Assembly (NCBI GenBank): GCA_963751345.1
Contig: CAVVUS010000018.1
Location: forward strand, 32,001 to 96,000
DNA length: 64,000 bases
Direction of reading: 5' to 3'
Source: an uncultured Chloroflexia bacterium
Lineage (GTDB): Bacteria > Chloroflexota > Anaerolineae > B4-G1 > SLSP01
Part shown: piece by piece, positions 3,485-60,609 of the stretch
Layout of the letters: every line of letters starts with the position of its first letter
Numbering within the stretch: position 1 is the first letter of the stretch
Made by a program: the position numbers and the translations under genes
The notes under the pieces: generated by a model
What the model was told of the DNA's origin: nothing
Databases searched by the model: none
What the model saw: the letters and a program-made list of their open reading frames with translations, nothing else

Positions 3485-4075
3485 ATGAAGGGCAGATGCA
3501 AAAAGATGGCGACAACGTGGGATGGGACCTCCGCAGAGCGTACGCTGCCGGGACAGGATGCCGAAAGGGTGCTTGAAAGGGCCCTGGAGGAGCACTGGCA
3601 CCGTGTCTGCGCGGTGCTCTATCGCTTGGTCGGCGACTGGGATGAGGCCGAAGATCTGGCGCTTGAGGTCTTCTATCGACTCCACAAGCGCCCCCCACGC
3701 GACGTCGAGAAGGTGGCGAGTTGGCTCTACCGCGTCGCTACAAACCTTGGCTACAATGCCATTCGCGCGCGTCGTCGTCGACGTCATTATGAGGAGGCTG
3801 CCGGCAAGCTGGAGTGCCAGCGCGTCGTCTCGATGGACCCCGAGCGAGAGGTAGAGCGTCGCCAGGCTCAGCGGCGAATCCGCGAGGTGCTGTCGGGGAT
3901 GCGGCCTCGCTTCGCCCGGCTGCTCGTCCTGCGGCAGTTCGGTCTATCTTACGCCGAACTGGCCGAGGCGCTGGGCATCGCGCCGGGATCCGTCGGGACG
4001 CTTTTGGCTCGTGCGGAAAGCGCGTTCGAAGCGGGCTATCTGGCCCTGGAGGGCAACGATGCGACACTTGAGTGA
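3485..4075 (+). CDS. ECF RNA polymerase sigma factor (start may be 3506)
   Basis: DEAEDLALEVF, SWLYRVATN, GLSYAELAEALGI..GSVGTLLARA (regions 2 and 4). Confidence 0.92.
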   Translation: MKGRCKKMATTWDGTSAERTLPGQDAERVLERALEEHWHRVCAVLYRLVGDWDEAEDLALEVFYRLHKRPPRDVEKVASWLYRVATNLGYNAIRARRRRRHYEEAAGKLECQRVVSMDPEREVERRQAQRRIREVLSGMRPRFARLLVLRQFGLSYAELAEALGIAPGSVGTLLARAESAFEAGYLALEGNDATLE

Positions 4076-5252
4076 AGGTCAACTTCGTGCTTATCACGAT
4101 GGCGCGCTGGGACCGCGGTCACGTGCACGCGTCCAAGCTCACCTTGGGAACTGCGCCCGTTGTGAACGACGGTCGCACCAGGTCGTCGAACGCGGCGCTC
4201 GGGTCGCCGCGTGGGTGGCAGCGCCCCAGCCTTCACCCCGGGAAGCCCACCCCATCATCTCTGTGCAGTCTGCCCGACTGAGACTTGAGAGATACGAAGA
4301 GAGCAGAGAGGAGGCCGAAGAGCCTATGGCTAAGCTAAAGAGAGGACTATCGCGCCGTATCAGCCCTGCCTGGGTCGCCGTGATCCTGTTGGTGATCCTG
4401 GGACTGAGCTTCACGCTGGAGCCGGTCCGCACGTTGGCGAGCAGCTTCCTGGGACTGTTCCGCGTGCAGAAGATAGAGTTTGTGGCGTTTGACCCGTCAT
4501 CCCTGCTCGACGGTCAGGGCGTGGAAACGGCAATGCAGTCGTTGGAAAAGATGATGGACGAACAGGTCGCCGTCGACGTCGACGGCGAGCCCCAGAACGT
4601 GGACGAGGCGACGCTTCGCTCGCTCTCGGCCTTCCGGGTGCGTCTACCGCAGGCCGTCGATGGCGAGCCGCACTACGCGCTGACGCCAGGCGCCACCATC
4701 GACGTCAAGGTGGATCTGCCGCGCATCAAGGCGCTGCTCTCCGAGCTGGGGTATCAGGATGTTCAACTACCAAGTGCCCTCGACGGGGCGGACGTGAGCG
4801 TGCAGTTGTCGCCGTCGGCCATCTCGTCCTACGGATCCTGTGAGCCGAACACCGAGGAATGGGCCGCTGCGCATGGCCCTTCCGATTTCAGTGGCGACTG
4901 CACGGCCCTCATGCAGATGGTCAGTCCTGACGTCTCGGCCCCCGAAGGGTTGGATCTGCAGCAGTTAGGGTTGGCCTATTTGCAGCTTCTCGGTATGAGT
5001 CCCAGCGAGGCGACGCAGTTCAGCCAGCACGTCGATTGGACGGCGACACTCGTGATCCCGGTCCCACAGTCCGAGGCAACGTACACCGACGTGAGCGTGG
5101 ATGGCGTCACTGGCGCGCTGATCCGGCCTACGCACAACCGTCTTCCCACTTCGGAGTATCTTCTGATGTGGATCAAGGACGACGTCGTTTACGCGCTTAT
5201 GGGAACGGGAAGTCAGGCTGAGGCGCTTCAGATCGCCAATTCGCTTCAGTAA
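4059..5252 (+). CDS. ZAS (zf-HC2) transmembrane anti-sigma factor
   Basis: N-terminal H..HLGNCARC, one TM helix, extracytoplasmic domain ending ALQIANSL; overlaps the sigma gene. Confidence 0.88.
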   Translation: MRHLSEGQLRAYHDGALGPRSRARVQAHLGNCARCERRSHQVVERGARVAAWVAAPQPSPREAHPIISVQSARLRLERYEESREEAEEPMAKLKRGLSRRISPAWVAVILLVILGLSFTLEPVRTLASSFLGLFRVQKIEFVAFDPSSLLDGQGVETAMQSLEKMMDEQVAVDVDGEPQNVDEATLRSLSAFRVRLPQAVDGEPHYALTPGATIDVKVDLPRIKALLSELGYQDVQLPSALDGADVSVQLSPSAISSYGSCEPNTEEWAAAHGPSDFSGDCTALMQMVSPDVSAPEGLDLQQLGLAYLQLLGMSPSEATQFSQHVDWTATLVIPVPQSEATYTDVSVDGVTGALIRPTHNRLPTSEYLLMWIKDDVVYALMGTGSQAEALQIANSLQ

Positions 5253-5291
5253 CACGTTGCTGGCTGGCTGGTAGCCGGTAGACATCGATCG

Positions 5292-5328
5292 CAAGACTAC
5301 CCCAAGGGTCGCCCCTGGGGTGGTCTTG
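5292..5328. terminator. Intergenic hairpin followed by a TACAAT -10 box
   Basis: CAAGACTACCCCA...TGGGGTGGTCTTG inverted repeat; TACAAT at 5331-5336. Confidence 0.5.
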
Positions 5329-5346
5329 TGTACAATCATAGGTGAT

Positions 5347-6379
5347 ATGGTCACGTCAACTCGTACGAGCCTTGCGATTGATGTTCAGCATCTGCACAAG
5401 ACCTTCGGTGAGCAAGTTGCCGTTGCTGACCTGACGCTGCAGGTCGAGCGGGGCGAGGTTTTCGGCTTCCTAGGGCCCAATGGCGCGGGAAAGACGACCT
5501 CGGTCAAGATGTTCCTGGGCCTGGTCGCGTCGACGGCGGGCACCGGACAGATTCTGGGGTTGCCGCTCGGCGATCCCCAGGGCCGTGCCAAGGTAGGGTT
5601 CCTGCCGGAGCATTTCCGTTTTCACGATTGGCTGACCGCCACGGAGTTCCTCCGCCTCCACGCGGATCTCTACAAGATCCCCGCGAGCGTGAGCCGCAAG
5701 CGCATCCCCGAGCTTCTGGACCTGGTAGGGCTATCGCCCCACGCCGGGAAGAAGCTGCGCGCCTTTTCAAAGGGGATGCTGCAGCGCATCGGCCTGGCCC
5801 AGGCGCTGCTCAATGAACCGGATCTCGTCTTCCTCGACGAACCCACCTCGGGGCTTGATCCGATGGGACGGCGGTTGGTGCGCGACATCATCCACGATCT
5901 GAAGAAGCGTGGCACCGCCGTCTTTCTTAACTCCCATCTGCTCAGCGAGGTCGAGGTGACGTGCGATCGCGTGGCCTTCATCCGCCACGGCGAGGTGGTC
6001 TACACCAGCGCGCTCAACACGCTCGTCGAGGGCGAGGAGCTCCTCGCCCGTGAGCTCACCGTCGCCATCGGGCGCACCCGCACGATGCCGCGTTGGGCTC
6101 TTCCTTTCCGCTCGAGGTGATCGCCGGGCTGGCCCGTTGGGGCGACAACATCCGCGCCGGCGGCGACGTCCGCGCCGACGGAGGCAACCGCCGTTCTGAC
6201 GGAGGCAACCCCGTTCTGACGGAGGCATGATCTCAATGACCGTGCACCGGGAGTCGGATCTTCCGGCTATCGCGCGATATCTGATGGATTGCGGGCTTGA
6301 CCTCTACGCCTTCTCGCCCCAGAGAATCTCGCTTGAGGATCTCTTCGTCGAGATCCTCGGCGCCGACAGCGAGGTGTGA
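5347..6379 (+). CDS. ABC transporter ATP-binding protein (frameshifted at about 6040-6220)
   Basis: GPNGAGKT, FSKGMLQR, LDEPTSGLD; typical C-terminus SLEDLFVEIL found in another frame ending at 6379. Confidence 0.85.
6177..6227 (+). repeat. Approximately 21-bp tandem repeat, 2.5 copies
   Basis: GACGGAGGCAACCGCCGTTCT / GACGGAGGCAACCCCGTTCT / GACGGAGGCA. Confidence 0.85.
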
Positions 6380-6383
6380 CGCG

Positions 6384-7223
6384 ATGACTACGTGGGTGAT
6401 TGCCCGGCTGACGTTCCGTGAGGCCTCACGGCGCAAGATCGTGTTTGCCGCGCTCGTGTTGGGCGTGGTCTTCCTGGGCGTCTACGGCGCGGGCCTCTAC
6501 TTCATCCGGCAGGATCTGGCGCGGTCGGGCGAGATAGGGAACCCCCTGATCAGCAACCAGATCTTCAACTTCCTGCTGCTGAGCGGGCTTTACGTCGTCA
6601 ACTTCCTCTTTGTCGTGATGGCGGTTCTGACCTCAGTGGACACTATCGCCGGTGAGATCAACTCCGGCACGATCCAGTCGTTGGTCGCCAAGCCGGTGCG
6701 CCGGTGGGAGATTCTGCTGGGCAAATGGTTCGGCTTCATCGTTATGCTGACCCTCTACCTGGCCCTGATGGCAGGCGGCGTGATCGCGATCAACCGGGCG
6801 ATCACCGGGTACCAAGCCTCGAACGTGTTTCGCGCGATGGCCTTGATTTGGCTCAACGGGTGCTTGCTGTTGAGCGTCAGCTTCCTCGGCGGCACGCGGC
6901 TCTCCACGCTGGCCAACGGCGTCCTCGCCTTTGCGGCCTACGGCGTCGCCTTCGTCGGGGGATGGATCGAGCAGATCGGGTCGTTCCTGGAGAGCACGAC
7001 AGCCATCAACGTGGGCATCGTCTCCAGCTTGCTGCTGCCCAGTGAGGCGCTGTGGAAGCGTGCGGCCTACGAGATGCGCTCCCCTATCGTAGACGTCATG
7101 GGATTCTCCCCGTTTACCTCCGGTAACTCGGTGCCCAGCGGTCTGATGGTGGGGTACGCCGTTGCCTATGCCGTCGTCGCGCTCGCGCTGGCAGTCTGGA
7201 GCTTCAGTCGTCGCGATCTGTAA
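6384..7223 (+). CDS. ABC-2 type transporter permease
   Basis: IARLTFREA start, EINSGTIQSLVAKPVRRWEILLGK, FSRRDL end; multiple TM helices. Confidence 0.9.
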   Translation: MTTWVIARLTFREASRRKIVFAALVLGVVFLGVYGAGLYFIRQDLARSGEIGNPLISNQIFNFLLLSGLYVVNFLFVVMAVLTSVDTIAGEINSGTIQSLVAKPVRRWEILLGKWFGFIVMLTLYLALMAGGVIAINRAITGYQASNVFRAMALIWLNGCLLLSVSFLGGTRLSTLANGVLAFAAYGVAFVGGWIEQIGSFLESTTAINVGIVSSLLLPSEALWKRAAYEMRSPIVDVMGFSPFTSGNSVPSGLMVGYAVAYAVVALALAVWSFSRRDL

Positions 7224-7235
7224 TGCCCGCATTTC

Positions 7236-7260
7236 GTAGAGACGGGTCACCGACCCGTCT
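7236..7260 (+). repeat. GTAG-type REP-like palindrome
   Basis: GTAG + AGACGGGTC-ACC-GACCCGTCT, just after the permease stop. Confidence 0.6.
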
Positions 7261-7376
7261 TCTGGTATGAACGCCCGTTGAATGTTGGTATGATCTTCGT
7301 CGTGAGGGTTCTGATTGAGCGGTGCATCTGCGCCCAGAGATGAGGCACGACCCAATCTACACGATCGCGCGCCGAG

Positions 7377-7404
7377 TTGTCCGATAGAACTTTTGTGCTA
7401 TCAT
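7377..7404 (+). promoter_or_regulatory. Sigma70 promoter with a putative LexA (SOS) box in its spacer
   Basis: TTGTCC-N16-TATCAT with extended TG; AGAAC-TTTT-GTGCT at 7386-7399 is one mismatch from AGAAC-N4-GTTCT. Confidence 0.65.
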
Positions 7405-7441
7405 GTGGGCTAGGAACGTCGTAGCCAAGTGAGGAGGTCGG

Positions 7442-8518
7442 ATGCCAGCCGATCCGTCCGCGTTGACCATTTGGACCACCCAACCCGACAGCCCGCTAGC
7501 ACGTCATCTGCGGGAGATGGGCTTCACTGTCGGCGCCATCGAGGAGGATGAGGGCGACATCGATCGCTACATCCTTGGCCCACAACTCGCGGTCGAGCGT
7601 CGTACGGCCCGCACCTTCCTGTTGGGCATCCAGGACAAGACGCTCTTCACCTCTGCTATCTATCTCCGCGAGCACTTTGAGATCCCGATTCTCATCGTCG
7701 AGGGTAGTATCGACTACGGGACCACGGGGTTTCATCCCCAGGCCGTGCGTGGCGCGCTGTCGTCCATGATGCTTGAATATGGCGTGAGCGTCCTTTCCAC
7801 TCCGGACGAGGGGGAGACTGCTCAGCTTCTGGCGATGATGGCGCGCCATGCCCAGGCGGGTATTCCCGAGATCTCCCTGGTCCCCAAGCGCAAAGCCGTG
7901 ATCTTGCCCGATCTACAGCGGCGCGTGGTGGAGATGCTGCCGGGCTGCGGACGGGTGACTGCAAGGGATCTGCTGCAGCATTTCGGCAGTGTCGAGCGCA
8001 TCGTCTCCGCGGGGCAGACGGAGCTGCAGCACGTCCGCGGCATCGGTAGGACGCGCGCCGCCGAAATCCACCGCGTCTTGCACGCAGATTATGAGGCGGT
8101 CGATACCGAACAGAACCTGGAGGACGCCATCACGGCTTCGCCGGAACTCCTCTTCGATCATGACGTTGAGTTCTTGGCACGACAACACCTTTTCACGACG
8201 GCGGCAGGTGAGCGCAATATCGTCGATCTTGCGTTCTTCGATGTCGCACGCGCCACCGTCGTTTTGGTTGAACTCAAGAGGGGTGGGCTGAACGCGGATC
8301 ACGAGGCACAGCTTCGACGCTATCTTGAGACGGCGGATGAGTCCCCGCTCTTCCACAGCTATCTGGTTCAGGGTGCCGGGCTTCGCGGGATTCTGGCTAC
8401 CGTGGACCGATGTGATTTTACTGCCAGCATCTCCGGACGTCGAGGCTGTTATCGTGGACGAGGCTGCGGTACAATCGAGGTGATCAAGGCGCTACGCCAC
8501 AAGAGACTAGGAGGATAG
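7442..8518 (+). CDS. ERCC4/XPF-like domain + (HhH)2 + NucS-like PD-(D/E)xK nuclease fusion
   Basis: LAVERRT..LF..PILIVEG (ERCC4); LPGCG..ARDLLQHFGS..VRGIG (HhH2); EQNLED..PELL..RQ..IVDL..VELKRG..QLRRY (NucS-like); SD GAGGAGG. Confidence 0.8.
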   Translation: MPADPSALTIWTTQPDSPLARHLREMGFTVGAIEEDEGDIDRYILGPQLAVERRTARTFLLGIQDKTLFTSAIYLREHFEIPILIVEGSIDYGTTGFHPQAVRGALSSMMLEYGVSVLSTPDEGETAQLLAMMARHAQAGIPEISLVPKRKAVILPDLQRRVVEMLPGCGRVTARDLLQHFGSVERIVSAGQTELQHVRGIGRTRAAEIHRVLHADYEAVDTEQNLEDAITASPELLFDHDVEFLARQHLFTTAAGERNIVDLAFFDVARATVVLVELKRGGLNADHEAQLRRYLETADESPLFHSYLVQGAGLRGILATVDRCDFTASISGRRGCYRGRGCGTIEVIKALRHKRLGG

Positions 8519-8522
8519 AGAA

Positions 8523-9452
8523 ATGGAGAAGCTGAGCCGGGCAGCACAGGCCAGAGCGCGGGCATTTGTCTTCGAGTATGGGCGTCCGTTGGAGCGGGCC
8601 AGGTTTCTCTATGCCTTGGAGGGTGGCGACGCGCAGAAGCTGTGCTCGACGAACTGGCGTCCTTCCGAGAACGAGGACGGAGGGTTCGGCCACGGGTTGG
8701 AGTCCGACCTGAGGCTGCCCGACTCGTCGGTGTTGGCCACGACGGTGGGGTTGCAGATCGCTTCGTGAGGTCGGCGCCGGCGCGGATCATCCCTTGGTCG
8801 AGGGGGCCATGCGCTACTTGATGGCGACCTATGACTCCGACCACGAAGTCTGGCCTATGACCCCCCCCAACGTCGACGACGCGCCGCACGCCCCGTGGTG
8901 GCACTATGATGAGGACGTGGCGACCGGTGGGGTGGATTCCTGGCCAATCCCCGTGCGGAGATCGTGGGCTACCTGCACGACTACGCCGATCTGGTGCCGC
9001 CGCAGATGCGGGATCATCTGACGGACGCAGTCATAGAGCATCTCGGGGACCTTGGGACATCTGTCGAGATGCACGAGGCCCTTTGCTATGTGCGCCTCGC
9101 CGAGAGCGAGGGGCTGCCGGAGGCCGCGCGTTTGGAACTGCTGCGCCTGCTGGTGCCGGTGGTGGATGCGACGGTGGCCAAGGACCCGGGCGCGTGGGGT
9201 GGATATGGGCTTACACCGGTCGAGGTCGCCAGCGGTCCGGACTCGCCCTTTGCGGCCCTGTTGGCCGAGCCGCTGTCGGCCAACCTCGATTACGAGATCG
9301 CGCAGCATGCCGAGAGCGGTATCTGGGAGCCCAAGTGGACGTGGGGTGGCGCGTATCCGGAGGCTTGGGAGCAGGCGAGAGAGGACTGGTCCGGAGTCAT
9401 TACCGTTCGGATGTTGGCGACGCTCAAACGTTTCGGGCGCCTGGAAGGGTAG
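8523..9452 (+). CDS. Prenyltransferase/terpenoid-cyclase-fold (alpha/alpha barrel) protein, frameshifted
   Basis: GRPLERARF..NEDGGFGHGLESDLR, APHAPWW, WSGVIT; split over ORFs 8523-8768, 8794-9021 and 8964-9452. Confidence 0.65.
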
Positions 9453-10604
9453 GTGCGGCCGGTGGAGATCTCGATTGCGACGGCTCGTCGACTGGCGCTC
9501 TATTGCCAGGGGCTCAACGGTGCTTCCGAGGGCCCTGCAGATAGAGCCCATATTGCTCAAATCATCGAGCAACTGGGTTATGTGCAGATTGACACGATCC
9601 ACGTCATTCAGCGGGCGCACCATCACGTGCTCTGGAGCCGCTGTCCGGGCTATCATCCACAGATGCTCCACGAGCTTCTGGTCGAGGATCGCAGCGTCTT
9701 CGAGTGGTGGACCCACGCCGCATCTTACATCCCGATGACCGACTTCCGCTTCTACGTGCCTCGGATGCGGGATATGGCGGACTCAGCACGACAGAAGGCG
9801 TGGCACGACGAACACCGTGAGGTTGTGGACCACGTCATCGCGCGCATCCGCGAGGAGGGGGCACTGGGCGCGGCGGACTTCGAGGCGCCGGAGGATTTTC
9901 AGGGCGGCACGTGGTGGAATTGGAAACCGGCAAAGCGGGCGCTGGAGTTCCTCTTCAACGCCGGTGTGGTGACCGTATCCGAACGCCGGAACTTCCAGCG
10001 GCTCTACGATCTCCGGGAGCGAATCATACCTGAGGATGCGCATCTTCCCGAACCGGATCGCGCTGACCGGGATGAGTTCATCATCCGGCGGTCGGTTGGC
10101 AGTTTGGGCGTACTTCCCAGAAGGGAGATCCGTTGGTGGCGGGCGACTCGCCCTAGCGCGGAAGCTCTCGAACGGGAAATTGATGCCGGAAGGATCACGC
10201 TCGTTTCGCTCGAGGGTGATGGGGACGAGCCCTGGTACGCCTGGACGGCGGCACTCGAAGCCATCGACACCGATAGCCGCGAGCCTGTCGCGCTCCACAT
10301 TCTCTCTCCCTTCGACAACCTGATCATCCGACGCCAGTGGATGGAACGACTCTTTGGTTACGACTATCGACTGGAATGCTATGTGCCCAAAGCCAAGCGG
10401 CAATATGGTTACTTCGCGCTGCCGATTCTCTATGGCGATCGATTCATCGGGCGGATGGACACGAAGGCGGACCGCGCCACCCGCACCTTGATCGTGCGCC
10501 AGCTCACGTTCGAGGCTGATTTCGACCCCGACGAGCGCGTCCTGTCGCTTCTGGTGGAGAAGCTGCGGGCTTTTGGCGCGTTCAACGGCTGTGAGTGCCT
10601 TTGA
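9453..10604 (+). CDS. ycaQ: YcaQ/AlkZ-family (HTH_42) crosslink-repair DNA glycosylase; C-terminus may extend to 10684
   Basis: VQIDTI (QxD), FEWWTHAAS, FQRLYDL, LSPFDNL, YRLECYVPKAKRQYGYF. Confidence 0.9.
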   Translation: MRPVEISIATARRLALYCQGLNGASEGPADRAHIAQIIEQLGYVQIDTIHVIQRAHHHVLWSRCPGYHPQMLHELLVEDRSVFEWWTHAASYIPMTDFRFYVPRMRDMADSARQKAWHDEHREVVDHVIARIREEGALGAADFEAPEDFQGGTWWNWKPAKRALEFLFNAGVVTVSERRNFQRLYDLRERIIPEDAHLPEPDRADRDEFIIRRSVGSLGVLPRREIRWWRATRPSAEALEREIDAGRITLVSLEGDGDEPWYAWTAALEAIDTDSREPVALHILSPFDNLIIRRQWMERLFGYDYRLECYVPKAKRQYGYFALPILYGDRFIGRMDTKADRATRTLIVRQLTFEADFDPDERVLSLLVEKLRAFGAFNGCECL

Positions 10605-10731
10605 GCGTCGAACAGGTCACGCCGGAGCGTTTGAAGCGTCCTCTCTCCCTTGCGCTGGCCTCCCCGGAATATGCCGAGAACTGACATCAATCCCCGGTAA
10701 GCTTGGATCGTGTCATATCAAAGGAGGCGAC

Positions 10732-11509
10732 GTGTCATCAGTAGATCGATTCCTTGAGGGACGCGTGGCCCTGGTTACCGGGTCGACGGGTGGGGGCATG
10801 GGGCGGAGCATCGCCCTGACGCTGGCTGCTCACGGCGCCGACATCGTGCTCAACCACGGCACACATCGTTGCGATAGCGAAGCCGACGCTGCGGCAGAGG
10901 CGATTGTCCAGGCGATCTATGCTATGGGAAGTCGTGCGCGCTTCGTCAAGGCTGACACGCGCAAGGCCGGTGAGGTCGAGGAGATGGTCCGCCAGGCGCA
11001 GGAGACCTTTGGGCGTATCGATATCCTCGTCAACAACGCCGGTGGCGCGTGGCTGCCAGGTGATATTACCGATGCCGACCCGGAGGCGTTCCGTGATGTC
11101 ATCGAGGCCGAGGCATTTGGCGCCTTCCTGTGTACCCGCGCATGCCTGCCGCTCATGCGCCAACAAGCCTGGGGCCGGATTGTCAGTCTGGGTGCTTATG
11201 ATGCCGGGATCTGGGCCGATGGCCCGCTCTCCTACGCCATCGGCAAGGGCTCGCGCGCGCTCATGACGCGTCACCTCGCTCTGCAGGAGCGCAAACACAA
11301 CATCACGGTGAACTTGGTCAATCCCGGGCCGGGTCATACCTTCGCCTTTGGGAGCCTGGATGTGCGCCTTGAGCTATGCGCGGCACGAAGCCGCGTGGCA
11401 AGAGCGACAGAAGGCAACGCCGCAGGATATCGCCGATGCCGTGCTCTTCCTCTGCCGCGAGGAGGCACGTTTCATCACCGGAAGCCACCTCGCCTTCTCC
11501 ATCGACTGA
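10732..11509 (+). CDS. SDR family oxidoreductase (frameshift near 11360-11390)
   Basis: TGSTGGGMG, DILVNNAG, YAIGK; C-terminus PQDIADAVLFL..FITG in another frame; SD AAGGAGG. Confidence 0.85.
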
Positions 11510-13849: not shown

Positions 13850-16800
13850 TTGCGTATCACTATTCAGGGCGCCAACGAGCACAACCTGAAGGACGTCGAC
13901 GTCGAGATCGGCGACGGGCTGACGGTCGTCACCGGAGTCTCGGGCTCCGGCAAGACGTCGCTCGTCTTCGATACCCTCTACCACGAGGCACGTCGCCGGT
14001 TCCTGGAGGTCTTCTCGCTGGGCGAACGCCTCTCTCCGGCGGACGTGCGGGTGATCACCGGTCTGGGACCGGCGGTTGCCGTGGGCCAGAACCTCCTGAA
14101 TCGCAACCCAGGGTCCACGTTGGCGACGGCCTCAGGACTACATCCGTTTCTGCGGCTGCTCTACGCTCACTTCGGGGAGCGCGCCTGCGCGCAGTGTGGG
14201 GCACCCATCTCGGTTCATACGAATGATGAGATTATCGAGCGGCTGGCCTTCCTGGCCGAGACGGCGCCGCTCATGGTTATCGCGCCCATCGTGCGCCAGG
14301 CAGTCGGCAGCCATCGAACGTTGCTGGCGCTCCTGATCGAGGCCTTTGGTGCGAGTGCCGTGATCCTCGACGGCGCTGTGGCGACCCAGGCTCAGGTGGC
14401 GGCGCTCGATGCGACACAACTGCACGACATCGACATTGTGGTTGCCGAGCTACCCACCGCGGCGGGGACAGGCGAGATCCGCGATGCCCTGGAGCGCGTC
14501 TGGGCATTCGGGGCCAGCGCCGTAGCGGTGCGCCAGGGAGACCGGGTGACGACTCTATCCCGTGCGCCTGTCTGCTCACAGTGCGGTGCATGGTTCGGCG
14601 ATCTGTCTCCGGTGCGCTTTCACCAGCCCTGTCCTCACTGTGACGGCGCCGGCTGCGACCGCTGCGACCACACCGGCATGCATCCCGAGGCAGCCGCGGT
14701 CCGGTGGCAGGGCCTACGCCTTCCGGATCTGCTGGCTCTTCCGGTGACAGAGGTGCGCGGGCGTTTCGCCGAGGCCGAGCTTCCGTCGACGTCGGAACGC
14801 CTTGAGGCTGAGATCACGCGGCGTCTTGATGCCTTGGAGCGCGTCGGACTCGGCTACATTGCGCTAGATCGTTCTTCGCCCACGCTCTCCCGCGGGGAGT
14901 CTCAGCGGGTGCGGCTGGCTGTTGCGCTGACCAGCCGCCTCGAGGATATCGTCCACGTACTCGATGAGCCGACGATCGGGCAGCATCCTGCCGACGTCGC
15001 GCGGCTTCTACCCGCTTTCCGCGAACTGGGCGGCCCCGTGATCTACGTCGAGCATGATCGCGTCGCGGCGGCGGCGGCCGATCACGCGCTTGATCTGGGT
15101 CCAGGTGCAGGTCGTGCCGGCGGGACAGTCACGTTCGATGGTACGCCCGCCGGGCTCTGGCAGATGGATACGCCCACCGGTCGCTATTTCAGCCTCCGGG
15201 AGCGGGTGATGATTCCCGATCGCCGCCCTGAGCCGGAGGAGTTCCTGACTCTGCGAGGGGCCAACCTGCGCAACCTGCGGAGCATCGATGTCCCTATCCC
15301 TATGGGCCGGTTGACGGTTGTCACGGGCGTCTCGGGCTCGGGCAAGAGCACTTTCGTCGAGGATGTCCTCGCGGCTTCGCTCTCCGGTAGTGCCCCGGTG
15401 GGGTGCATTACCGTTGACGGGCCTCCGCTCAAAGCAGTGATGGTCGATCAGAGCCCGATTGGGCGGAACCCCCGGTCGAACCCGGCGACCTATACCAAGC
15501 TCTCCGACATCGTGCGCGACGGCTTCGCGGCGGCTACGGACCTCTCGCCGTCTCATTTCTCGTTCAATCGCCCCGAGGGTGCGTGCCCGGCCTGCAAGGG
15601 CATCGGCGCCGTCGAGGTCGCGATGCGCTATCTTCCCTCGACGTGGATCCCGTGCGCTGAATGTGAGGGCCACCGGTTCAGTGACGAAGTCCTGGCTGCG
15701 ACGGTCCCCTTCGGGGATGAAGCTCTATCCATCGCTGACTTCTACGAGCTCACCATTGCCGAGGTCGTGCCGCTACTCCGGTCGTCTCCGTATCTCTCCG
15801 AGCAGCAGAAACGGGCCGCCGGGCACATCCTGCACGCGCTTCGCGATATCGGCCTTGGCTATCTGCAACTGGGACAGCCGTCACCAACCCTGTCTGGCGG
15901 CGAAGCTCAGCGCGTCAAGTTGGCAAAGTACCTTGGACGGCCCAGGCTCCGGGGGCAGATGCTCATCCTGGACGAGCCCTCGACCGGCCTGCACCCCAAG
16001 GACATCTCCGGTCTTCTCAAGGTGTTGGATCGCCTGGTGCGGCGTGGTGCCTCGGTTGTGGTGGTCGAGCACAACACCGATATCATCCGTGCAGCTGATT
16101 GGGTCATCGATCTCGGTCCGGGTGCCGGGCCCAGGGGCGGCGACCTCGTCTATGCAGGTCCGCCCGATGGGCTGCTGCGGACAGCCGGCTCGGCCACCGG
16201 CCAGGCGCTGCGCGATGAGGCCCTGGTCACTCCGCGGGGTTCCCCGACCTCGCCCGGCACAGATGCAGTGGAAGAGCAATCTGCCGGTACGGTGGTTGGG
16301 GCCATTCGTATCCGCGGCGCAAAGGCCAACAATCTCAAAGACGTGAGTGTGGACTTCCCCAAGGGGCAGCTCACGGTCGTCACCGGTGTCTCCGGCTCGG
16401 GCAAGTCGAGCCTGGTGGGTGACGTACTCGAGTCCGAGGCGCGGCGTCGTTTCCTGGAGACCCTGTCGATGTACGAGCGCCAGGGCACGCGTGAGGGCCC
16501 AGAGGCCGACGCCGAGGCGATCACGGGCCTGGGTGTAGCCATCACCGTGGGCGGAGGGGGACGGGGACGCTTCGGGCGACGGAACACCGTGGGAACGGCG
16601 ACGGAACTCTCGCATCACCTGGCCATTCTTCTTTCGTGGCTCGGTGAACGTGACTGTCCGAACTGCGGCACCTCACTCCAGCGGATCTCGCCAAGCCGCC
16701 ACGTGGCAGGCCTGCGGCGCGGCGGCACCTGGCAGTGCCCAACGTGCGGGAGTCTCTATCCCATCGCGGCCCCGCGGCACTTCTCCCCGTCCGTCTACGC

Positions 16801-18806
16801 TGCAGCATGCACGACCTGTCACGGGGTGGGCACGCTGCGTGAGCCGAACCCCGACAAGCTGATTGTGCATCCTGAGTTGCCGCTGTGCAGCGGCGCAATG
16901 TACTCCCCGGGGTTTTTCCCCAAAGGCTATCTCTGCAAGCCGATGAATGGCGGATATGAGGTCGTTCAAGCGTTGGCCAAGGTGTTGGGTTTTGATCCTG
17001 CCACCACGCCCTGGAACGAGATGACGCGCGAGGCACAGCACGCGTTCCTCTTCGGTTATCCGGAGCCGCTGGAGGTCATCCACGAGAGCCGTAACGGCAC
17101 CACGAGCGTACATCGCCAACATCATCCTGGTTTCTACGGGTGGATACGTGACTGGGACGTCGGCGGTACCTATACCGATACCAAGGTGTGCCCGGCGTGT
17201 GGGGGCGTGCGGCTGCGCGCCGAATACGCGTCGGTTAGGGTTGCAGGCGAGACCTTCCATACGCTGAGCGAGATGACGTTGTCCAGGTTGGCCGATGTGC
17301 TGGACAAGGTGGAGACATCGTCTGTCACCGAACGTGACGGAACGCAGGTCGCCAGCACCGTCGCTGCCAGTCTCGATGCAGCGCGGAGACGGGTGCACTT
17401 CCTTTGCCAGGTCGGGTTGGGCTACCTTCACCTCAACCGCGACGCAGCGACGCTCTCCGCGGGTGAGGCGCAACGTGTCAAGCTGGCCGGCTTGCTGGGC
17501 AGCGGGCTGACTTCCTTGACAGTCCTCGTTGACGAGCCGACACGGGGTATGCATCCTTCCGAGGTCGAGGCGATGATCGGTGCCCTGATCAGCCTCCGCG
17601 CTGAGGGCAACACGGTGGTCGCGGTTGAACACGATCCGGACGTGATGCGCTCGGCCGATTACCTGGTGGATATGGGCCCTGGCGCAGGCGCGGCGGGAGG
17701 CATGGTGGTGGCAGCGGGCACCTTCGAGGAGGTGGTGCGATCAGAGACTCTCACTGCCCGTTGGCTCAGCGGCGCGCGTAGACTCGATCTGACGCAGCCT
17801 CGGCGCGAACCCAAGCAGTGGATGGTGATTCGAGGGGCCAGGGCGCACAACCTCAGAGGCGAGGATGTGCGTCTGCCGAAGGGTGTCCTCGTGGGGATCT
17901 GCGGGGTCTCCGGGTCCGGCAAGAGCACGCTCTTGATCGACACACTGGGCCGCGCCCTGGCGCCAAAGAAGCAGACGACATCCGTGGCCTATGAGCCCGT
18001 GGATCCAGGCGAGCACGATGCAATCGAGGGCTCCCCCCGGCGTGTCCTCCTGGTGGATCAGGTCAAGGCCGGGGTTACGAGTCCTGCTGACTTCCTGGGA
18101 TTGACAAAGCCCGTTCACGCCATCTACGCTGAAAGTGAGGACGCCCATATCTTGGGGCTGGATGCGAAGGCGTTGGGCCAGCGCTGCTCCGCCTGCGGTG
18201 GGCGCGGGACGGAGACCCTCGACATGGGATTTCTGCCTAACGTGTACGTGACGTGTGAGACTTGCCAGGGGACGGGCTATCGGCCCGAGGCGTGGGACGT
18301 GAGGTTGCACGGCGTGGCGCTGCCCGAGATCTTCGGCAGGACGATCGATGAGGTTGTTGAGTTGCTCCGGGACGATATCGACGCCGGTTCGAGCCTTGCT
18401 CGCAAGCTGGAGGCTGTCCGCGACGTGGGATTGGGATACCTGGTGCTCCGTCAGCCCGGCTATTCGCTCTCCGGAGGTGAGGCACAGCGACTGAAGATCG
18501 CGGATGAGCTCTGCAGGCAGAGTCGTTCTGAGACGCTCTACATTCTTGACGAACCCACGGTGGGCCAGCATCTGGAGGACGTCGCGCGCCTTGGCGGCGT
18601 GCTGCGCCGGCTGGTTGCCGAGGGCAACTCCGTCTTCGTCGTGGAGCATCACACGCATCCTCCTGGCGACGTGCGACTGGCTGGTGGAGCTGGGGCCCGG
18701 CGGTGGTCCCGATGGCGGTCGCGTCATCGCCCAGGGCACCCCTGAGGCCGTAGCGGCGGGTGACACGCCGACGGCGCGATACCTGCGGCGGGTGCTGGAG
18801 CGATGA
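13850..18806 (+). CDS. uvrA: Tandem-duplicated UvrA-like protein with four ABC ATPase modules (frameshift near 18655)
   Basis: Four GVSGSGK[ST] Walker A motifs, four LSxGExQR..DEP motifs, many CxxC Zn fingers; true C-terminus in ORF 18504-18806. Confidence 0.88.
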
Positions 18807-33487: not shown

Positions 33488-34698
33488 ATGACAACAGAAC
33501 ACGAAGCGACCCAGGCCGTACACGCGGGCGAGGAGAAGCGCAAGCCTTACGGAGCGCTGACCACGCCGATTGCCCAGACCTCAACCTACACCTTTGCGGA
33601 TACTGCCGAAGTTCTCGCGTATATGGCTCGTAAGGCTGAACGGACTGAAGCTCCGGGAGGCGGGAGGGGACCTCTCCCTGCGTGATGAGTACGGCCGCTA
33701 CAGCAACCCGACGCAGAAGGTCGTGGAGGGGAAGGTAGCGGCGCTGGAGGGCGCGGAGGGGGCCGTGCTCTTTGGTTCCGGGATGGCGGCGATCACGACG
33801 ACACTGCTCACGCTGCTCAAGGCCGGGGACCACGCTATCGTCGTCCGCGACGCTTACCGCAGGACGAAGGAGTTTGCCGCGGATTTCTTGCCCCGCTTCG
33901 GCGTCGAGACGACGTTGGTCCCGGTCGGTGACATCGACGGACTGGCCGCAGCCATCCGCCCTAACACACGCGTGATCTTTGGCGAGACGCCCACGAATCC
34001 CTATCTGCGGATCATGGACCTGGCTCGCGTGGCCGAGATGGCCAGACCCCGCGAGATCATCACCGTGGTCGACACTACCTTTGCCACCCCCATCAACCTA
34101 CGTCCGCTCTCGCTGGGGATCGATGTCGTCATCCACAGCGCGAGCAAGTACCTGGGGGGGCACAACGACCTGCTGGCCGGCGTGGTCGCCGGCGCCCACC
34201 GCTGGGTGACCGCAGTGGAGTACACACGCGGGTTGCTGGGATGCGTGGGCGGGCCGCAAGATGCCTACCTCCTATCGCGCGGGCTCAAGACGCTGGTGCT
34301 CCGCGTCCGACAGCAGAACGAAAATGGGATGCGCGTGGCGCAATTCCTTGAAGGGTCACCCGAAGGTGGCCCGCGTCTTCTATCCGGGGCTGCCCAGCCA
34401 CCCGGACTATGAAATCGCCCGGCGGCAGATGACGGGCTTTGGCGGTGTGGTCAGCTTCGAGATCGCCGGCGACAAGGAGCAGACCTCGCGCTTTGTCGAT
34501 GCTCTCCGGATTCCCTACATCGGGCCGACCTTGGGCGGTGTGGAGAGCATCATCCAGCAACAGGCGCTCTTCGTGTCGCTGGATCCGCAGGAGCGCCGGG
34601 CCTCGGGCGTCAGCGACAGCCTGGTGCGCTACGCCCTGGGGATCGAGGATGCGGACGATCTCATCGCCGACCTGGACCAGGCGCTGCGCGCGGTGTGA
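33488..34698 (+). CDS. metB: Cystathionine gamma-synthase family PLP enzyme (frameshifts near 33660 and 34350)
   Basis: [53 protein letters not shown]. Confidence 0.85.
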
Positions 34699-53477: not shown

Positions 53478-55046
53478 ATGACAGATCCATCGCCGCTGGT
53501 GCTCGGGATCGATGCCAGTACCACGGCATGCAAGGCTATCGTCTGGAATCTGCACGGCGAGGCGGTAGCCGAGGGCCGGGCTTCCGCTACCGCTCCTGAA
53601 ACCCCGACCGCTATGGCACGAGCAGCCCGCCGAGGCGTGGTGGTCAGCGCTGGTGGCGGCGGTCCGTGAGGCCGTTGGCGGTCGCGAGGAGGTGGGCCGC
53701 CGCATCGCTGCGCTCTGCATCGCCCCACAGCGCGAGACCTTCGTCCCGGTGGATCGAACGGGCGTACCCCTGCGCAACGCCATCGTCTGGATGGACGAGC
53801 GGGCGGGCGCGCTGTTGCCGCGCATCGCGCAGGAGTATGGCGCGGAGCGCATCCACCGGGAGACCGGCAAGCCGCTCTCGGGCAACCTCTCCCTGGGCAA
53901 GATCGCCTGGTTGCGCGAGAACGAGCCGGAGGTCTTCGCTCGGACGGCGAAGTTCCTCGACGTTGGCGCCTTCCTTACGCACAGGCTGACGGGTGAGTAT
54001 CGCACCGGCTGGGGCTGTGTGGACCCGATGGGGCTCTTCGATATGCAGCGCGACGCCTGGGATGAGCCGCTGCTCGACTACCTGGGCGTCTCGGTCGAAC
54101 GGATGCCGGAGGCCTATCCGCCCGGGACCGTGCGTGGGCAGGCTGACGGGTGCTGCGGCAGAGGCGTGTGGGCTGCCGCTCGGGCTGCCGGTCGTCGCGG
54201 GGGTTGGCGATGGGCAGGCCGGTGGGTTAGGGGCCGGTGTCGTTGGCCCCGGGCAGACCTACCTCAACCTCGGTACCGCTGTCATTACCGGCACCTATGC
54301 CGACCGCTACCTGACGGATCGCGCCTTCCGGACGATGTATGGCGCCGTCCCGGGCTCTTACAGTTTGGAGACCGTGCTGTTAGGCGGGACCTATACGGTC
54401 ACCTGGTTCATCGACACGTTCATGGGGGCCCGTGGGGATGAGGCTGCGCGCTTGCTCGACAGGTTTGATAGGTCTCTCGATCGGACGCCGGTTGGCGCAG
54501 AGGGGCTCATGCTGGTTCCGTACTGGAATAGCGCGATGAGTCCCTATTGGGACGCAAGAGCGAGCGGCATGGTAGTTGGATGGCGTGGTGTGCATACGCC
54601 TGAGCATCTGTACCGAGCGATCCTTGAGGGTATTGCATTTGAGGCGCGGCTTCATACCGAGGGTGTGGAAGCCGCTCTCAACCGGCCCGTACTGCGCTAT
54701 ACTGTGATGGGAGGTGGAGCGCGGAGTGAGCGCTGGCGCCAGATCATCGCGGACGTTACCGGCAAGCCGGTGGGGCTCTCAGATCATGACAGAAGCAGCG
54801 GCTCTCGGTGCCGGAATCCAGGCTGCCGCAGGAATCGGCCTCTTTGCCGATGTGCGTCAAGCCGCGTCAGCTATGGCACCCGACACCGCCGAGGTCACGA
54901 TGCCCGATCGTGGACGCCACTCGTTCTATACTCGGCTCTACGAAGATACCTACCAGTACCTGTTTCCTTCCGTTCGTTCCTATCTCGATCGTTTAACCAC
55001 CCTTACCACAAACCAGGAGGAACCCGATGACCCCAGATCTCGCTGA
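53478..55046 (+). CDS. FGGY-family carbohydrate kinase, xylulokinase-like (three frameshifts)
   Basis: LGIDASTTACKA, NAIVWMDER, GDGQAG, RAILEGIAF, GGGARS, EAAALGA. Confidence 0.85.
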
Positions 55047-58663: not shown

Positions 58664-60398
58664 CTACTCCACCTCCGCCAGTTCGAGCTGCCGCTGGTAG
58701 AGCTGGCTGTAGAGCCCGCCGCGGGCGAGAAGCTCGCGGTGGTCGCCGACCTCGCGGATGTGCCCGTCCTCGAGCGCGATGATCTTGTCGGCACTGCGAA
58801 TCGTGCTCAGCCGGTGGGCAATCACCAACGCCGTGCGCCCCCTCATAACCTCCTCCAGGGCTTGCTGGATGAGATACTCGGCCTCCGCATCCACCGAGGA
58901 TGTGGCCTCGTCCAGGATAAGGATCCGCGGGTCGGTGATGATCGCGCGTGCCAGGGCCAGCCGCTGCTTCTGCCCCCCGCTCAAGCGCACGCCTCTCTCC
59001 CCGATCTCGGTGTCATAGCCGGCAGGTAAATCGGCGATGAACTCGTGAGCGTGGGCCGCTTTGGTTGCGGCGATCATCACCTCATCGGTCGCCTTGAGGG
59101 TTCCCGTAGCAGATGTTCTCACGCACCGTCGTGTTGAAGAGAAAAGTGTCCTGCAGGACGACGGCGATATGCTGGCGCAGCGACTGCAACTCCAGGTCGC
59201 GAAGATCGTGACCGTCGAGCAGGATGCGACCATGCCCGGGGTCGTAGAAGCGGCAGAGCAGGCTGGCGATGCTGGTCTTGCCCGCGCCACTTGGGCCGAC
59301 GAGCGCGACCACCTCGCCGGGTGCGATGTGGAAGTCGATGTCGTGCAGCACCTCGTCGCCCTCGCCGTAGCGGAAGTGAACGTCCTCAAACTGCACCTCA
59401 CCACGGGTCTCGGTCAGGCTCATCGCACCTGGCGCGCTCTTGACTTCGGAGTCGACGTCCAGGATCTCGAAGATGCGCTCCCCGGCTGCGATGGCCTGCT
59501 GGAACGTATTGTCCACCTCGGTCAGCCGCCGGAGAGGTTCGTAGAACGATGCGATATAGGCCAGGAAAGCCACCAACGTCCCGAGCGTGATGCCGTTCGC
59601 CACGACCGCGCGGGCGCCAAAGCCCAGAACGAGGGCCCCGCCTACAGCAGTGAGAAACTGGAGCGCAGGGAAGAAAACCGACCACGTCCGAATCGCCTTG
59701 ATCTGCTGGCGGTAATACTCTTCACTCACGTTACGGAAAGCTCTGAGCTCGTTTTCCTCTTGCTCGAATGCCTGGATCACACGGATGCCGGCGAGGTTGT
59801 CCTGAAGCCGCGAGTTGATGTCGCCCAGCCGGTCCCGCACCTGCCGATAGATGGGGCGGGCGCGCTCGTTGAACATACGCAATCCCACTGCCATCAGTGG
59901 CAAGGGGATCAGCACAACCAGGGCCAGACGCCAATCGAGCGTCAGTAGGACGATGGAGGCGCCGACCAGGCGCATCAGATCGACCACCGTTAGCGGGACG
60001 CCGTGGGTGATGAACTGCTCCATCGCATTGACGTCGTTGGTCACGCGGGACATTAGCTCGCCGGTGGAGGTCGATTCGAAGAATGAGAGCGAGAGTCGCT
60101 GCACGTGGTTGTAGATGCGCACGCGGAGGTCGAGGATAAAGCGCTCGCCCAACGCGTGCCGGATGAAGTTCTCTCCGAAGTCGGTGAGATGCATGACGGC
60201 GTAGATGCCAATGAGCAACAGCACCAGGCGGACCAGGAGTTGCAGGTCCCCATTCTGAATGACTTTGTCGATGATCGCGCGCTCGATCAGCGGCGGTGTC
60301 AGGTTCAGCCCGGTCCTGACGAGCAGCAGCAGGGCCGTCACGATGAGGGTCTTCCAGTACGGATATAGGTAGGCGAAGAGCCGCTTGAGTACGGTCAT
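58664..60398 (-). CDS. ABC exporter, fused permease/ATPase (MsbA-like; frameshift near 59095)
   Basis: TM domain, [30 protein letters not shown]. Confidence 0.9.
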
Positions 60399-60609
60399 GG
60401 GTGGTTTCCTTGTGACATGGTCTCGGCAGAGGCCGGCATAGATCTGAAGTCTAGCATCGATCTGGTCAGAGACCATCTGCACGCCGCGAGTTTATCCAAA
60501 ATGGGATTGTGGACTAGAATGTGGTCCAAGGTAGCAACCCTTAGCTACGTTTCTCGTCCGGTTGGCAGCCCAGACCAGGGCGCCTTTGTTTGCGAAAGGA
60601 GAGATTGTG

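Follow-up and report, generated by a model that had tools for sequence, protein, structure and literature searches.

We analyzed a 64,000-nucleotide stretch of DNA from an uncultured Chloroflexia bacterium (GenBank assembly GCA_963751345.1, contig CAVVUS010000018.1, positions 32,001 to 96,000 of the forward strand), hereafter called the window, and focused on a nuclease gene at 7442..8518 on the + strand. Its open reading frame (ORF) of 358 aa encodes a degenerate ERCC4 domain, an (HhH)2 domain, and a NucS/YhcG-like PD-(D/E)xK domain. The ERCC4-fold domain, with its degenerate site, was recognized by Pfam, by the structure model, and by Foldseek and is encoded at 7466..7858 (+; residues 9–139). 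It is followed by the (HhH)2 domain at 7904..8083 (+; residues 155–214), which contains the GhG hairpins G168-C-G170 and G200-I-G202, and by the C-terminal PD-(D/E)xK nuclease domain of the RecB/NucS/YhcG-like type at 8102..8515 (+; residues 221–358). A nearly invariant inter-domain linker, P-E-I-S-L-V-P-K-R-K-A (7865..7897, +; residues 142–152), joins the first two domains.

In a Pfam check that had been proposed in an earlier note on this DNA, both ERCC4 and HhH scored above their cut-offs. ERCC4 (PF02732) matched residues 21–133 (E 1.3e-13; 51.5 bits compared with a cut-off of 24) and HHH_2 matched residues 167–214 (E 2.3e-8), with HHH_2 and HHH_5 together spanning 165–214 and both PF12826 and PF14520 exceeding their cut-offs. 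The YhcG_C PDDEXK profile matched residues 239–300 (E 1.6e-5) over profile positions 40–100 of 157 with 25.3 bits, under its cut-off of 32.5; NucS_C reached only E 0.06, and the sub-threshold PD-(D/E)xK matches span residues 223–300. With NCBIfam, residues 16–218 matched the C-terminal nuclease-HhH part of Hef (1.1e-47) and archaeal Xpf (4.3e-26), and residues 214–318 matched NucS (E 9.2e-7). All three scores are far under the equivalog cut-offs, and therefore the whole protein fits no curated family. The best sequence match among solved structures was A. pernix XPF (E 1.6e-23, residues 17–218).

The AlphaFold2 model, built with 36 homologues, has a mean predicted local distance difference test (pLDDT) score of 85.4, with most of the ERCC4 domain above 90, and a predicted template modeling (pTM) score of 0.48; it predicts three confident domains whose mutual placement is uncertain. 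In Foldseek searches, the whole model matched XPF (2bgw, E 1.5e-15), and the individual domains matched the Hef nuclease domain (1j24; TM(target) 0.88, root-mean-square deviation 2.3 Å), the Hef HhH domain (1x2i; TM(target) 0.93, 0.9 Å, 50% identity), and, for the C-terminal domain, NucS (2vld_B, E 1.7e-5) and EndoMS (5gke_A, E 8.9e-5). Among 36 aligned sequences, the GhG glycines G170, G200, and G202 are invariant and G168 is present in at least 90%. The (HhH)2 domain that the earlier note had placed after ERCC4 is thus borne out by the Pfam HHH matches, by the fold match to 1x2i, and by the retention of both hairpins. In the same alignment, the linker residues I144, S145, P148, K149, R150, and K151 are invariant; the linker is predicted to be flexible (pLDDT <50 at residues 143–149), and close short XPFs carry a similar version of it. 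The family also has a conserved C-terminal helix, L-K-x-L-R-x-x-R-L.

The two nuclease sites and the predicted dimer

As described in a passage on the XPF family, the catalytic signature is GDXnERKX3D, in which the acidic residues bind metal and the lysine activates water (PMC6320978). We compared it with an alignment of the window protein and the proteins of 54 further loci (designated by L numbers), 52–53 of which cover the ERCC4 site, and used as references A. pernix XPF in a HMMER alignment and five archaeal Hef sequences in a MAFFT alignment. T13-Q-P15 (7478..7486, +) lies at the place of the first-strand D-x-R-E of active XPF and Hef, D41-R42-Y43 (7562..7570, +) lies at the place of G-D-Y, with an Arg at the position of the metal-ligand Asp, and E52-R53-R54-T-A-R-T58 (7595..7615, +) lies at the place of ERKxxxD. 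The earlier note had recognized this last motif, ERRTART at residues 52–58, as a degenerate site with the changes K>R and D>T. Both changes are indeed seen, but the loss it described was too narrow, as the first-strand D..E and the Asp of GDY are gone too. Relative to archaeal Hef and the short XPFs, four parts of the signature are lost: T-x-(K/Q)-P stands in place of VDxRE, DRY in place of GDY, and ERR in place of ERK, and the final Asp is variable.

Of 53 family sequences, 51 have T or S at position 13 and 50 have P at position 15; R42 is found in 48 of 52. The conservation of ERRT, for which an alignment had likewise been proposed, is incomplete: 43 of the 52 sequences have R at position 54, 5 have K, and 4 have F, I, or L, and Asp occupies position 58 in just 2 of 52 (T58 in the window). 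None of the 52 aligned family sequences contains the GDXnERKX3D signature, and GDY and the first-strand D..E are also absent from all 52. On the other hand, the seven closest short XPFs that we fetched and the five archaeal Hef proteins retain [GA]D[YF] and ERKxxxD. Because the catalytic signature is absent in 52 of 52 family sequences, we class the window protein as a putative pseudo-nuclease within the ERCC4 fold family. The two sequences with Asp at position 58, divergent members from Armatimonadota (L042 and L043), still have ERKxxxD or DRKxxxD, without GDY or the first-strand D..E, and may be intermediates of the decay of the ERCC4 site.

The C-terminal site, in contrast, hardly varies. 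E227 (8120..8122, +), an acidic residue of helix 1 that we take to be motif I of RecB-like nucleases, occurs in every row but that of the fragment L054 (54 of 55). D262 (8225..8227, +), the D of PD-(D/E)xK, is present in 55 of 55, of which the L054 fragment row is unreliable. The (D/E)xK element is E277-L278-K279 (8270..8278, +), with E277 and K279 each in 54 of 54 sequences, and Q290-L-R-R-Y294 (8309..8323, +) is the QxxxY as in RecB-like nucleases, with Q290 and Y294 each in 54 of 54. R247 and Q248 are each found in all 54 covering sequences. Of the 55 rows, 54 have E223 and 53 have D221; where D221, E223, or E227 is missing, the row is either the fragment L054 or, through a single D>E change, L040. 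The intact D..ELK..QxxRY of the earlier note is accordingly present in full (D262, E277-L278-K279, Q290, and R293-Y294), and the domain keeps its assignment to the PD-(D/E)xK fold. That this site never varies while the ERCC4 site drifts is the strongest evidence for the predicted C-terminal catalysis.

To which nucleases is this domain closest? The language-model neighbors of the last 140 residues of the nearest homologue are stand-alone bacterial NucS_C clusters (score 0.92), which agrees with the NCBIfam and Foldseek matches (9.2e-7; 2vld_B and 5gke_A) and with the earlier description of the site as NucS-like. When the C-terminal domain alone was searched against PDB sequences, phmmer gave two chance-level matches (E >1) and no NucS chain; the evidence for a link to NucS comes from the profile, fold, and feature searches. 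Since YhcG_C matches 34 of 36 family members (E<=0.01, best E 5.4e-7) and NucS_C matches 11 of 36, we assign the domain to the RecB-like branch as a NucS/YhcG-like member and not as NucS proper. Furthermore, the NucS_N half-barrel had no Pfam or NCBIfam match in the window protein, in which the N-terminal 220 residues are ERCC4-(HhH)2, and therefore the window protein is not a NucS.

Could the ERCC4 site have been re-wired (D41, E52, and R54/K66), so that both nuclease domains would be active, giving a dimer with four active sites that might, for instance, make dual incisions? Several residues of the former active-site region are conserved, with D (46) or E (5) at the D41 position in 51 of 52 sequences, next to R42, and with E52 in 47 of 52, R53 in 51 of 52, and K66 in 52 of 53; the ERKxxxD or DRKxxxD of L042 and L043 points the same way. 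However, none of the 52 has the first-strand D..E or the GDY Asp, and the canonical Lys is an Arg or, in 4 sequences, a hydrophobic residue, whereas in the canonical motif, as stated in the passage cited above, it is the acidic residues that bind metal and the Lys that activates water (PMC6320978). Moreover, the ERCC4 site drifts in divergent branches and the C-terminal site never does, a pattern of relaxed beside constrained sites. We consider two active domains to be very improbable.

The dimer prediction that the earlier note had suggested gave an XPF-like homodimer with a score of 0.58, compared with 0.00 for the best control (similar complexes have already been solved). The calibration mark is reached by 20 of 30 proteins whose solved structures pair two copies of one chain and by 1 of 23 proteins solved as single chains. 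Contact agreement between the runs was at least 59%, and the pLDDT of the partner was at least 72. The confident part of the predicted interface comprises residues 99–137 of the ERCC4 domain and 155–220 of the HhH2 region, which are the surfaces used in archaeal XPF homodimers, and leaves the nuclease domains outside. Combined with the loss of the ERCC4 site, the invariant C-terminal site, and the scaffold, this supports the inference of the earlier note, and we think it likely that the labor is divided, such that the dead XPF module would sense DNA and the NucS-like domain would cut it. The role of "branched-DNA sensor" put forward in that note would follow from homology.

Family extent and sequence quality

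At E<=1e-3, 566 proteins were returned by a word-indexed protein search. Of these, the 120 best, one of which is the window's own, are 334–406 aa long and cover 89–100% of the query, and the other 119 are 56–85% identical to the window protein. Existing names of the homologues include "ERCC4-type nuclease", "hypothetical", and "DUF1016 family", and some had been pre-annotated with PF06250. When 1.84 billion cluster representatives were searched exhaustively with a profile, 191 proteins matched at E<=1e-30. About seven of these are full-length three-domain representatives (P0151, P0152, P0154, P0155, P0156, P0157, and P0160), and the other family matches are fragments; beyond the family, short XPFs of ~220 aa and Hef of ~750 aa matched profile positions 1–220 alone. 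With ~7 full-length representatives among 1.84 billion, the family therefore appears compact and well conserved.

The 54 further loci that encode the three-domain protein came from a scan with one genome per species, and all are from metagenome-assembled genomes (MAGs). They represent about ten phyla, including Chloroflexota, Planctomycetota (with Brocadiia), Armatimonadota, Poribacteria, Lentisphaerota, Verrucomicrobiota, Hydrogenedentota, and Thermodesulfobacteriota, and one contig is binned as Heimdallarchaeota. This last contig (L038; 5.5 kb, bin AB_125) encodes a protein of 48% identity that nests among bacterial sequences in a quick maximum-likelihood tree of 51 proteins (four fragments omitted), and mis-binning or transfer is a possible explanation for its Asgard assignment. 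No match was found in 50,697 phage records. In 72,556 plasmids, there was no full-length match; 155 records matched, none covering 80% or more of the query, and all aligned to residues ~8–240 alone.

An assembly chimaera or fusion artefact is ruled out by the coverage of 89–100% in the best 120 of the 566 matches and by the 54 loci. The earlier note had allowed that the fusion might vanish when the reads are polished, and this is refuted; polishing would probably alter 8422..8474 alone. A search for longer forms returned 11 proteins, of which 10 are of the Hef type and cover 49–61% of the query. The remaining one, P0121 (823 aa), contains Mur-ligase domains in addition to the complete three-domain nuclease (55% identity, 92% coverage) and is probably a mis-call or read-through, or else a rare fusion. 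A search for shorter forms with residues 215–330 gave 19 short proteins, most of them on contigs of less than 3 kb; they are probably truncated proteins and provide no evidence for a stand-alone C-terminal gene.

The stretch at 8422..8474 (+) is out of frame in the window copy, in which, by comparison with L001 and L002, one base is inserted near 8422 and two are inserted near 8473–8474. About 17 codons near the C-terminus are affected; the +1 frame there resembles the family consensus, and the model has pLDDT <50 at residues 331–336, within this stretch. This leaves the catalytic residues, which lie further upstream, untouched. The 17-codon stretch, together with the fact that the next gene (F6, described below) is broken too, would fit a window copy that is a decaying pseudogene, or a DNA-binding or regulatory protein that does not cut and in which both sites are inactive. 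On the other hand, the reading frame recovers and the ORF runs to full length, and because many other window genes look truncated relative to the Pfam profiles, assembly indels are favored over decay of the locus. The compensated frameshift is probably an assembly error, and an indel-rich assembly is its simplest reading. For the family, the PD-(D/E)xK residues, invariant across 54 sequences, argue for catalysis. A pseudogene or non-cutting protein is thus the least credible of the alternatives that we weighed, with hardly any probability left to it. ORFs with partial Pfam profiles occur at 33570–34409, 53993–55027, 59085–60482, and elsewhere in the window; examples are Cys_Met_Meta_PP (45–271 of 381), FGGY_C only, and ABC_tran (1–79 of 137).

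Neighboring genes and the upstream region

The nuclease gene is followed, after a 4-bp gap, by F6 (8523..9452, +), which encodes an alpha/alpha-toroid-like protein of ~308 aa. In the window, F6 is split into ORFs at 8523–8768, 8794–9021, and 8964–9452, the first and last of which share a frame; the split is a pair of frame changes, as orthologues carry one ORF of 308 aa. F6 adjoins the nuclease gene in the window, in L001 (9079–10005), in L002 (as two tandem copies), and in L004, L054, and L012, a Zipacnadia MAG being among the hosts; in L044, it lies 3 kb away. The F6 model is a confident alpha/alpha toroid (pLDDT 87.5), and the protein has invariant N-x-D-G-G-F-G and Trp-rich motifs. It belongs to no Pfam or PADLOC family and had no significant fold match in the PDB; the best fold matches, to complement thioester-containing domains and terpene synthases (E 3.1e-3), are insignificant.

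Directly after F6 lies a gene for an AlkZ-like (HTH_42) DNA glycosylase (9453..10604, +; Pfam PF06224, E 3.1e-67), and for this reason the nuclease, F6, and AlkZ-like genes probably form one operon. Eight of the 55 loci have a same-strand AlkZ-like gene downstream, namely the window, L001–L004, L030, and L054, all from Anaerolineae-like Chloroflexota, and L023 from Planctomycetaceae; three changes on the protein tree account for this adjacency. In L029 (Dehalococcoidales), an AlkD-like "DNA alkylation repair" gene (PF08713) is directly downstream. One source describes AlkZ/YcaQ and AlkD/YtkR2, in the passage concerned, as the two glycosylase families known to act on bulky and crosslinking adducts by removing them (PMC8934636), and a section of another states that YcaQ and AlkZ leave opposed apurinic/apyrimidinic sites, which are potential double-strand breaks (PMC13705206). 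The neighborhood suggests a link to AlkZ that is not general. AziN, a nuclease found near alkZ in Streptomyces, was considered as a relative and rejected, as the relevant passage gives it a VOC/glyoxalase fold, which is unrelated (PMC7145581).

Three further features of these neighborhoods may be recorded. Directly upstream of the nuclease gene, at 3485–7223, are genes for an ECF sigma factor, a zf-HC2 anti-sigma factor, a DrrA-like ABC ATPase, and an ABC-2 permease, an arrangement that is kept in L001. About 5 kb downstream of the nuclease gene, the window encodes a double-length UvrA paralogue of 1631 aa (13850–18745), with duplicated features (UvrA_inter, UvrA_DNA-bind, and several ABC_tran stretches). 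In four loci from Verrucomicrobiota and Planctomycetota (L031, at 9077–10039, and L017, L047, and L053), a gene of the RNase_H_2 superfamily (PF13482) is near or next to the nuclease gene.

Is the protein, then, a defense nuclease? As a single-gene anti-phage or anti-plasmid system, its XPF-like module would sense the intermediates that an invader forms in replication or recombination, and its NucS-like domain would destroy them. Shedu uses a NucS-like domain, and in PADLOC-DB v2 the C-terminal domain has weak matches (E ~1e-6) to the candidate system PDC-S02; furthermore, the distribution is patchy over about ten phyla, with a tree that does not follow them, a GmrSD-type gene adjoins the nuclease in L006, and a passage of a PD-(D/E)xK survey notes that YhcG/DUF1016 domains co-occur with restriction-modification genes (PMC3424549). 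However, the PDC-S02 matches are limited to residues 222–300, and the whole protein has no match among the PADLOC system models. The sequence is conserved to a degree that is unusual for a defense gene, with 55–60% identity across phyla and just ~7 full-length clusters at 50% identity among the 1.84 billion representatives, and phage records gave no match and plasmids no full-length match. Only 1 of 62 immediate neighbors in 36 loci is defense-like, and none recurs, whereas the only recurring functional neighbors are DNA-alkylation glycosylases. We therefore regard defense as improbable. A role in DNA repair is favored, and seems to us fairly probable, because of the high conservation, the absence of a defense context and of any mobile-element match, the recurrence of the glycosylases, and an operator that resembles an SOS box.

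This candidate operator lies in a promoter-like site at 7377..7404 (+), which is recognized by its consensus match only and consists of a -35 element TTGTCC, a 16-nt spacer, and a TG-extended -10 element TATCAT. Two such sites were found in 7150–10800 compared with 0.7 expected, and just this one is upstream of the nuclease gene. In the spacer, and overlapping the -10 element, is a 16-bp near-palindrome, TAGAAC-N4-GTGCTA (7385..7400, +), which is unique within the window at <=2 mismatches. It is kept in five Anaerolineae loci including the window; in the other four, it stands 55–103 bp upstream of the orthologue, with an exact core in L001, L004, and L030 and one mismatch in L003. Chloroflexi use LexA boxes of the GAAC-N4-GTTC type. 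The palindrome shares 7 of 8 core bases with this consensus, which is given in a passage on Gram-positive-type LexA boxes (PMC3323433). Matches to GAAC-N4-GTTC with <=1 mismatch are not above chance in the window (19 compared with 21.7 expected), so an enrichment of canonical LexA boxes was rejected and only the conserved upstream variant is of interest. Because the window offers no lexA or recA for comparison, possible SOS control is a lead and not a result.

Known systems and the proposed role

The short archaeal XPF of A. pernix (2bgw/2bhn) and Hef (1j22–1j25 and 1x2i) likewise have an ERCC4 domain followed by (HhH)2 and give the best sequence and fold matches, and the predicted homodimer of the window protein uses the same two interfaces as archaeal XPF. 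XPF and Hef differ in that they keep the catalytic signature, whereas the window family adds a nuclease domain of ~140 aa after HhH2 and has bacterial hosts; Hef also has a helicase domain, which the window protein lacks. With NucS/EndoMS (2vld, 5gke), the window protein shares the C-terminal RecB-like PD-(D/E)xK domain with its E, D, ExK, and QxxxY. The window protein would also share the logic that one section on NucS describes, in which a module that dimerizes and senses DNA precedes a nuclease domain on the outer side of the dimer (PMC8228993). NucS differs in its N-terminal beta-barrel sensor, in place of which the window protein has ERCC4-(HhH)2; the similarity is remote, and the mismatch specificity of NucS cannot be assumed for the window protein. 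The C-terminal domain is also like that of YhcG/DUF1016 (PF06250), the N-terminal parts of which are unrelated.

ERCC1, FAAP24, the FANCM C-terminus, and EME1 combine ERCC4 and (HhH)2 with decayed catalytic residues and bind DNA or partners, and our family profile matched FANCM and FAAP24 chains (E 1e-11 and 7e-6). These eukaryotic pseudo-nucleases form heterodimers with an active ERCC4 partner or stand in for one, whereas the window protein is a predicted homodimer in which activity would be supplied in cis by a different nuclease fold. ERCC4 proteins on Pseudomonas and Variovorax megaplasmids (pQBR103 WP_011922936.1; L055:1447-2148) also have ERCC4 and HhH2, with 32–35% identity over residues ~8–240, but they are plasmid-borne, keep VDSRE, GDY, and ERKxxxD (as seen in the pQBR103 protein), and have no C-terminal nuclease domain. 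Short ERCC4-(HhH)2 proteins of this kind are common on these megaplasmids and are annotated merely as "ERCC4 domain-containing protein".

XPF-family proteins are textbook repair nucleases of archaea and eukaryotes. A passage in a 2018 review describes XPF as having no direct bacterial orthologues (PMC6320978), an entry in a 2012 survey of PD-(D/E)xK nucleases lists ERCC4 under "Archaea & Eukaryota" (PMC3424549), and a term search of a 2026 review of bacterial crosslink repair found none of the names XPF, ERCC4, and NucS in it (PMC13705206). A term search of open-access papers and preprints found no description of a fusion of ERCC4 with NucS/PDDEXK. All of the component folds are known, and it is their combination that represents a family undescribed in print, from uncultured bacteria.

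We therefore propose, and hold to be more probable than not, that the protein is a homodimeric structure-specific DNA endonuclease of an undescribed bacterial family derived from short XPF. A short XPF, made of ERCC4 and (HhH)2, would have lost its own catalytic centre and gained a NucS/RecB-like nuclease domain. The ERCC4 domain without its metal-binding catalytic residues would then, together with the intact (HhH)2, act as a module for dimerization and for binding DNA junctions or distortions, as the pseudo-nuclease domains of ERCC1, FAAP24, and FANCM do in eukaryotes; in NucS terms, the mismatch-sensing N-terminal domain would be swapped for an XPF-type sensor. Phosphodiester cleavage would be carried out by the C-terminal NucS/RecB-like PD-(D/E)xK domain, and as there would be one such domain per protomer, the dimer could nick one strand or both close to the structure to which it binds. 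In Anaerolineae-like Chloroflexota, the gene would head a probable operon with F6 and the AlkZ-like glycosylase behind the LexA-box-like operator and, in that lineage, could take part in damage-inducible repair, either of crosslink or alkylation lesions themselves or of the stalled or broken intermediates to which they lead. The domain content, the lost ERCC4 signature, the invariant PD-(D/E)xK residues, the retained fusion, the local synteny, and the conserved upstream motif are observed; the dimer, the substrate, the strand that is cut, the regulator, and the pathway are the parts of this proposal that we infer.

Several points weigh against the proposal. The nuclease activity of all family members is predicted. 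At the former ERCC4 site, D41 and E52 are still conserved, as counted above, which leaves some probability to a re-wired site. A pTM of only 0.48 makes the placement of the nuclease domain against the scaffold uncertain, and the predicted dimer may be a memory of solved XPF homodimers, in which case it is a likeness and no proof. If real, the out-of-frame codons of the window copy, which cover the region of the predicted last strand, may impair it. The protein tree mixes phyla, with 19 of 48 inner branches open, and a patchy distribution is also expected of a defense gene. As regards the pathway, seven of the eight loci with AlkZ are from Chloroflexota, L001–L004 being close kin, so that much of this link may be inherited synteny, and most of the 62 immediate neighbors in the 36 other loci are functionally unrelated or without a Pfam family. 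The palindrome departs from GAAC-N4-GTTC at the same position in all five loci, and the window holds no lexA or recA promoter with which to compare it. A specific link to crosslink or alkylation repair is accordingly tentative, and we would sooner doubt than affirm it. The full combination is less likely still, and we put it forward as a speculation: a first bacterial XPF-family repair enzyme in which catalysis has moved in cis to a different nuclease fold, together with a damage-inducible, LexA-type AlkZ/F6 operon in Anaerolineae.

What would the family mean for bacterial DNA repair? XPF-type modules are widespread in uncultured bacteria of about ten phyla; their pseudo-nuclease ERCC4 domain would have arisen independently of the eukaryotic ones, and the lost ERCC4 activity would have been replaced in evolution by a fused NucS-like domain. 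The family would thus be a natural experiment on the uncoupling of sensing from cutting in structure-specific nucleases, and as the protein is small (~360 aa) and soluble-looking, a biochemical test would be cheap. If the link to AlkZ and the LexA box holds, the protein would provide an unrecognized nuclease step in bacterial crosslink or alkylation repair. If true, this would be a bacterial counterpart of the eukaryotic unhooking by glycosylase or nuclease that is paired with XPF/FANCM-type proteins, and a repair pathway that is missing from current accounts of bacterial crosslink repair.

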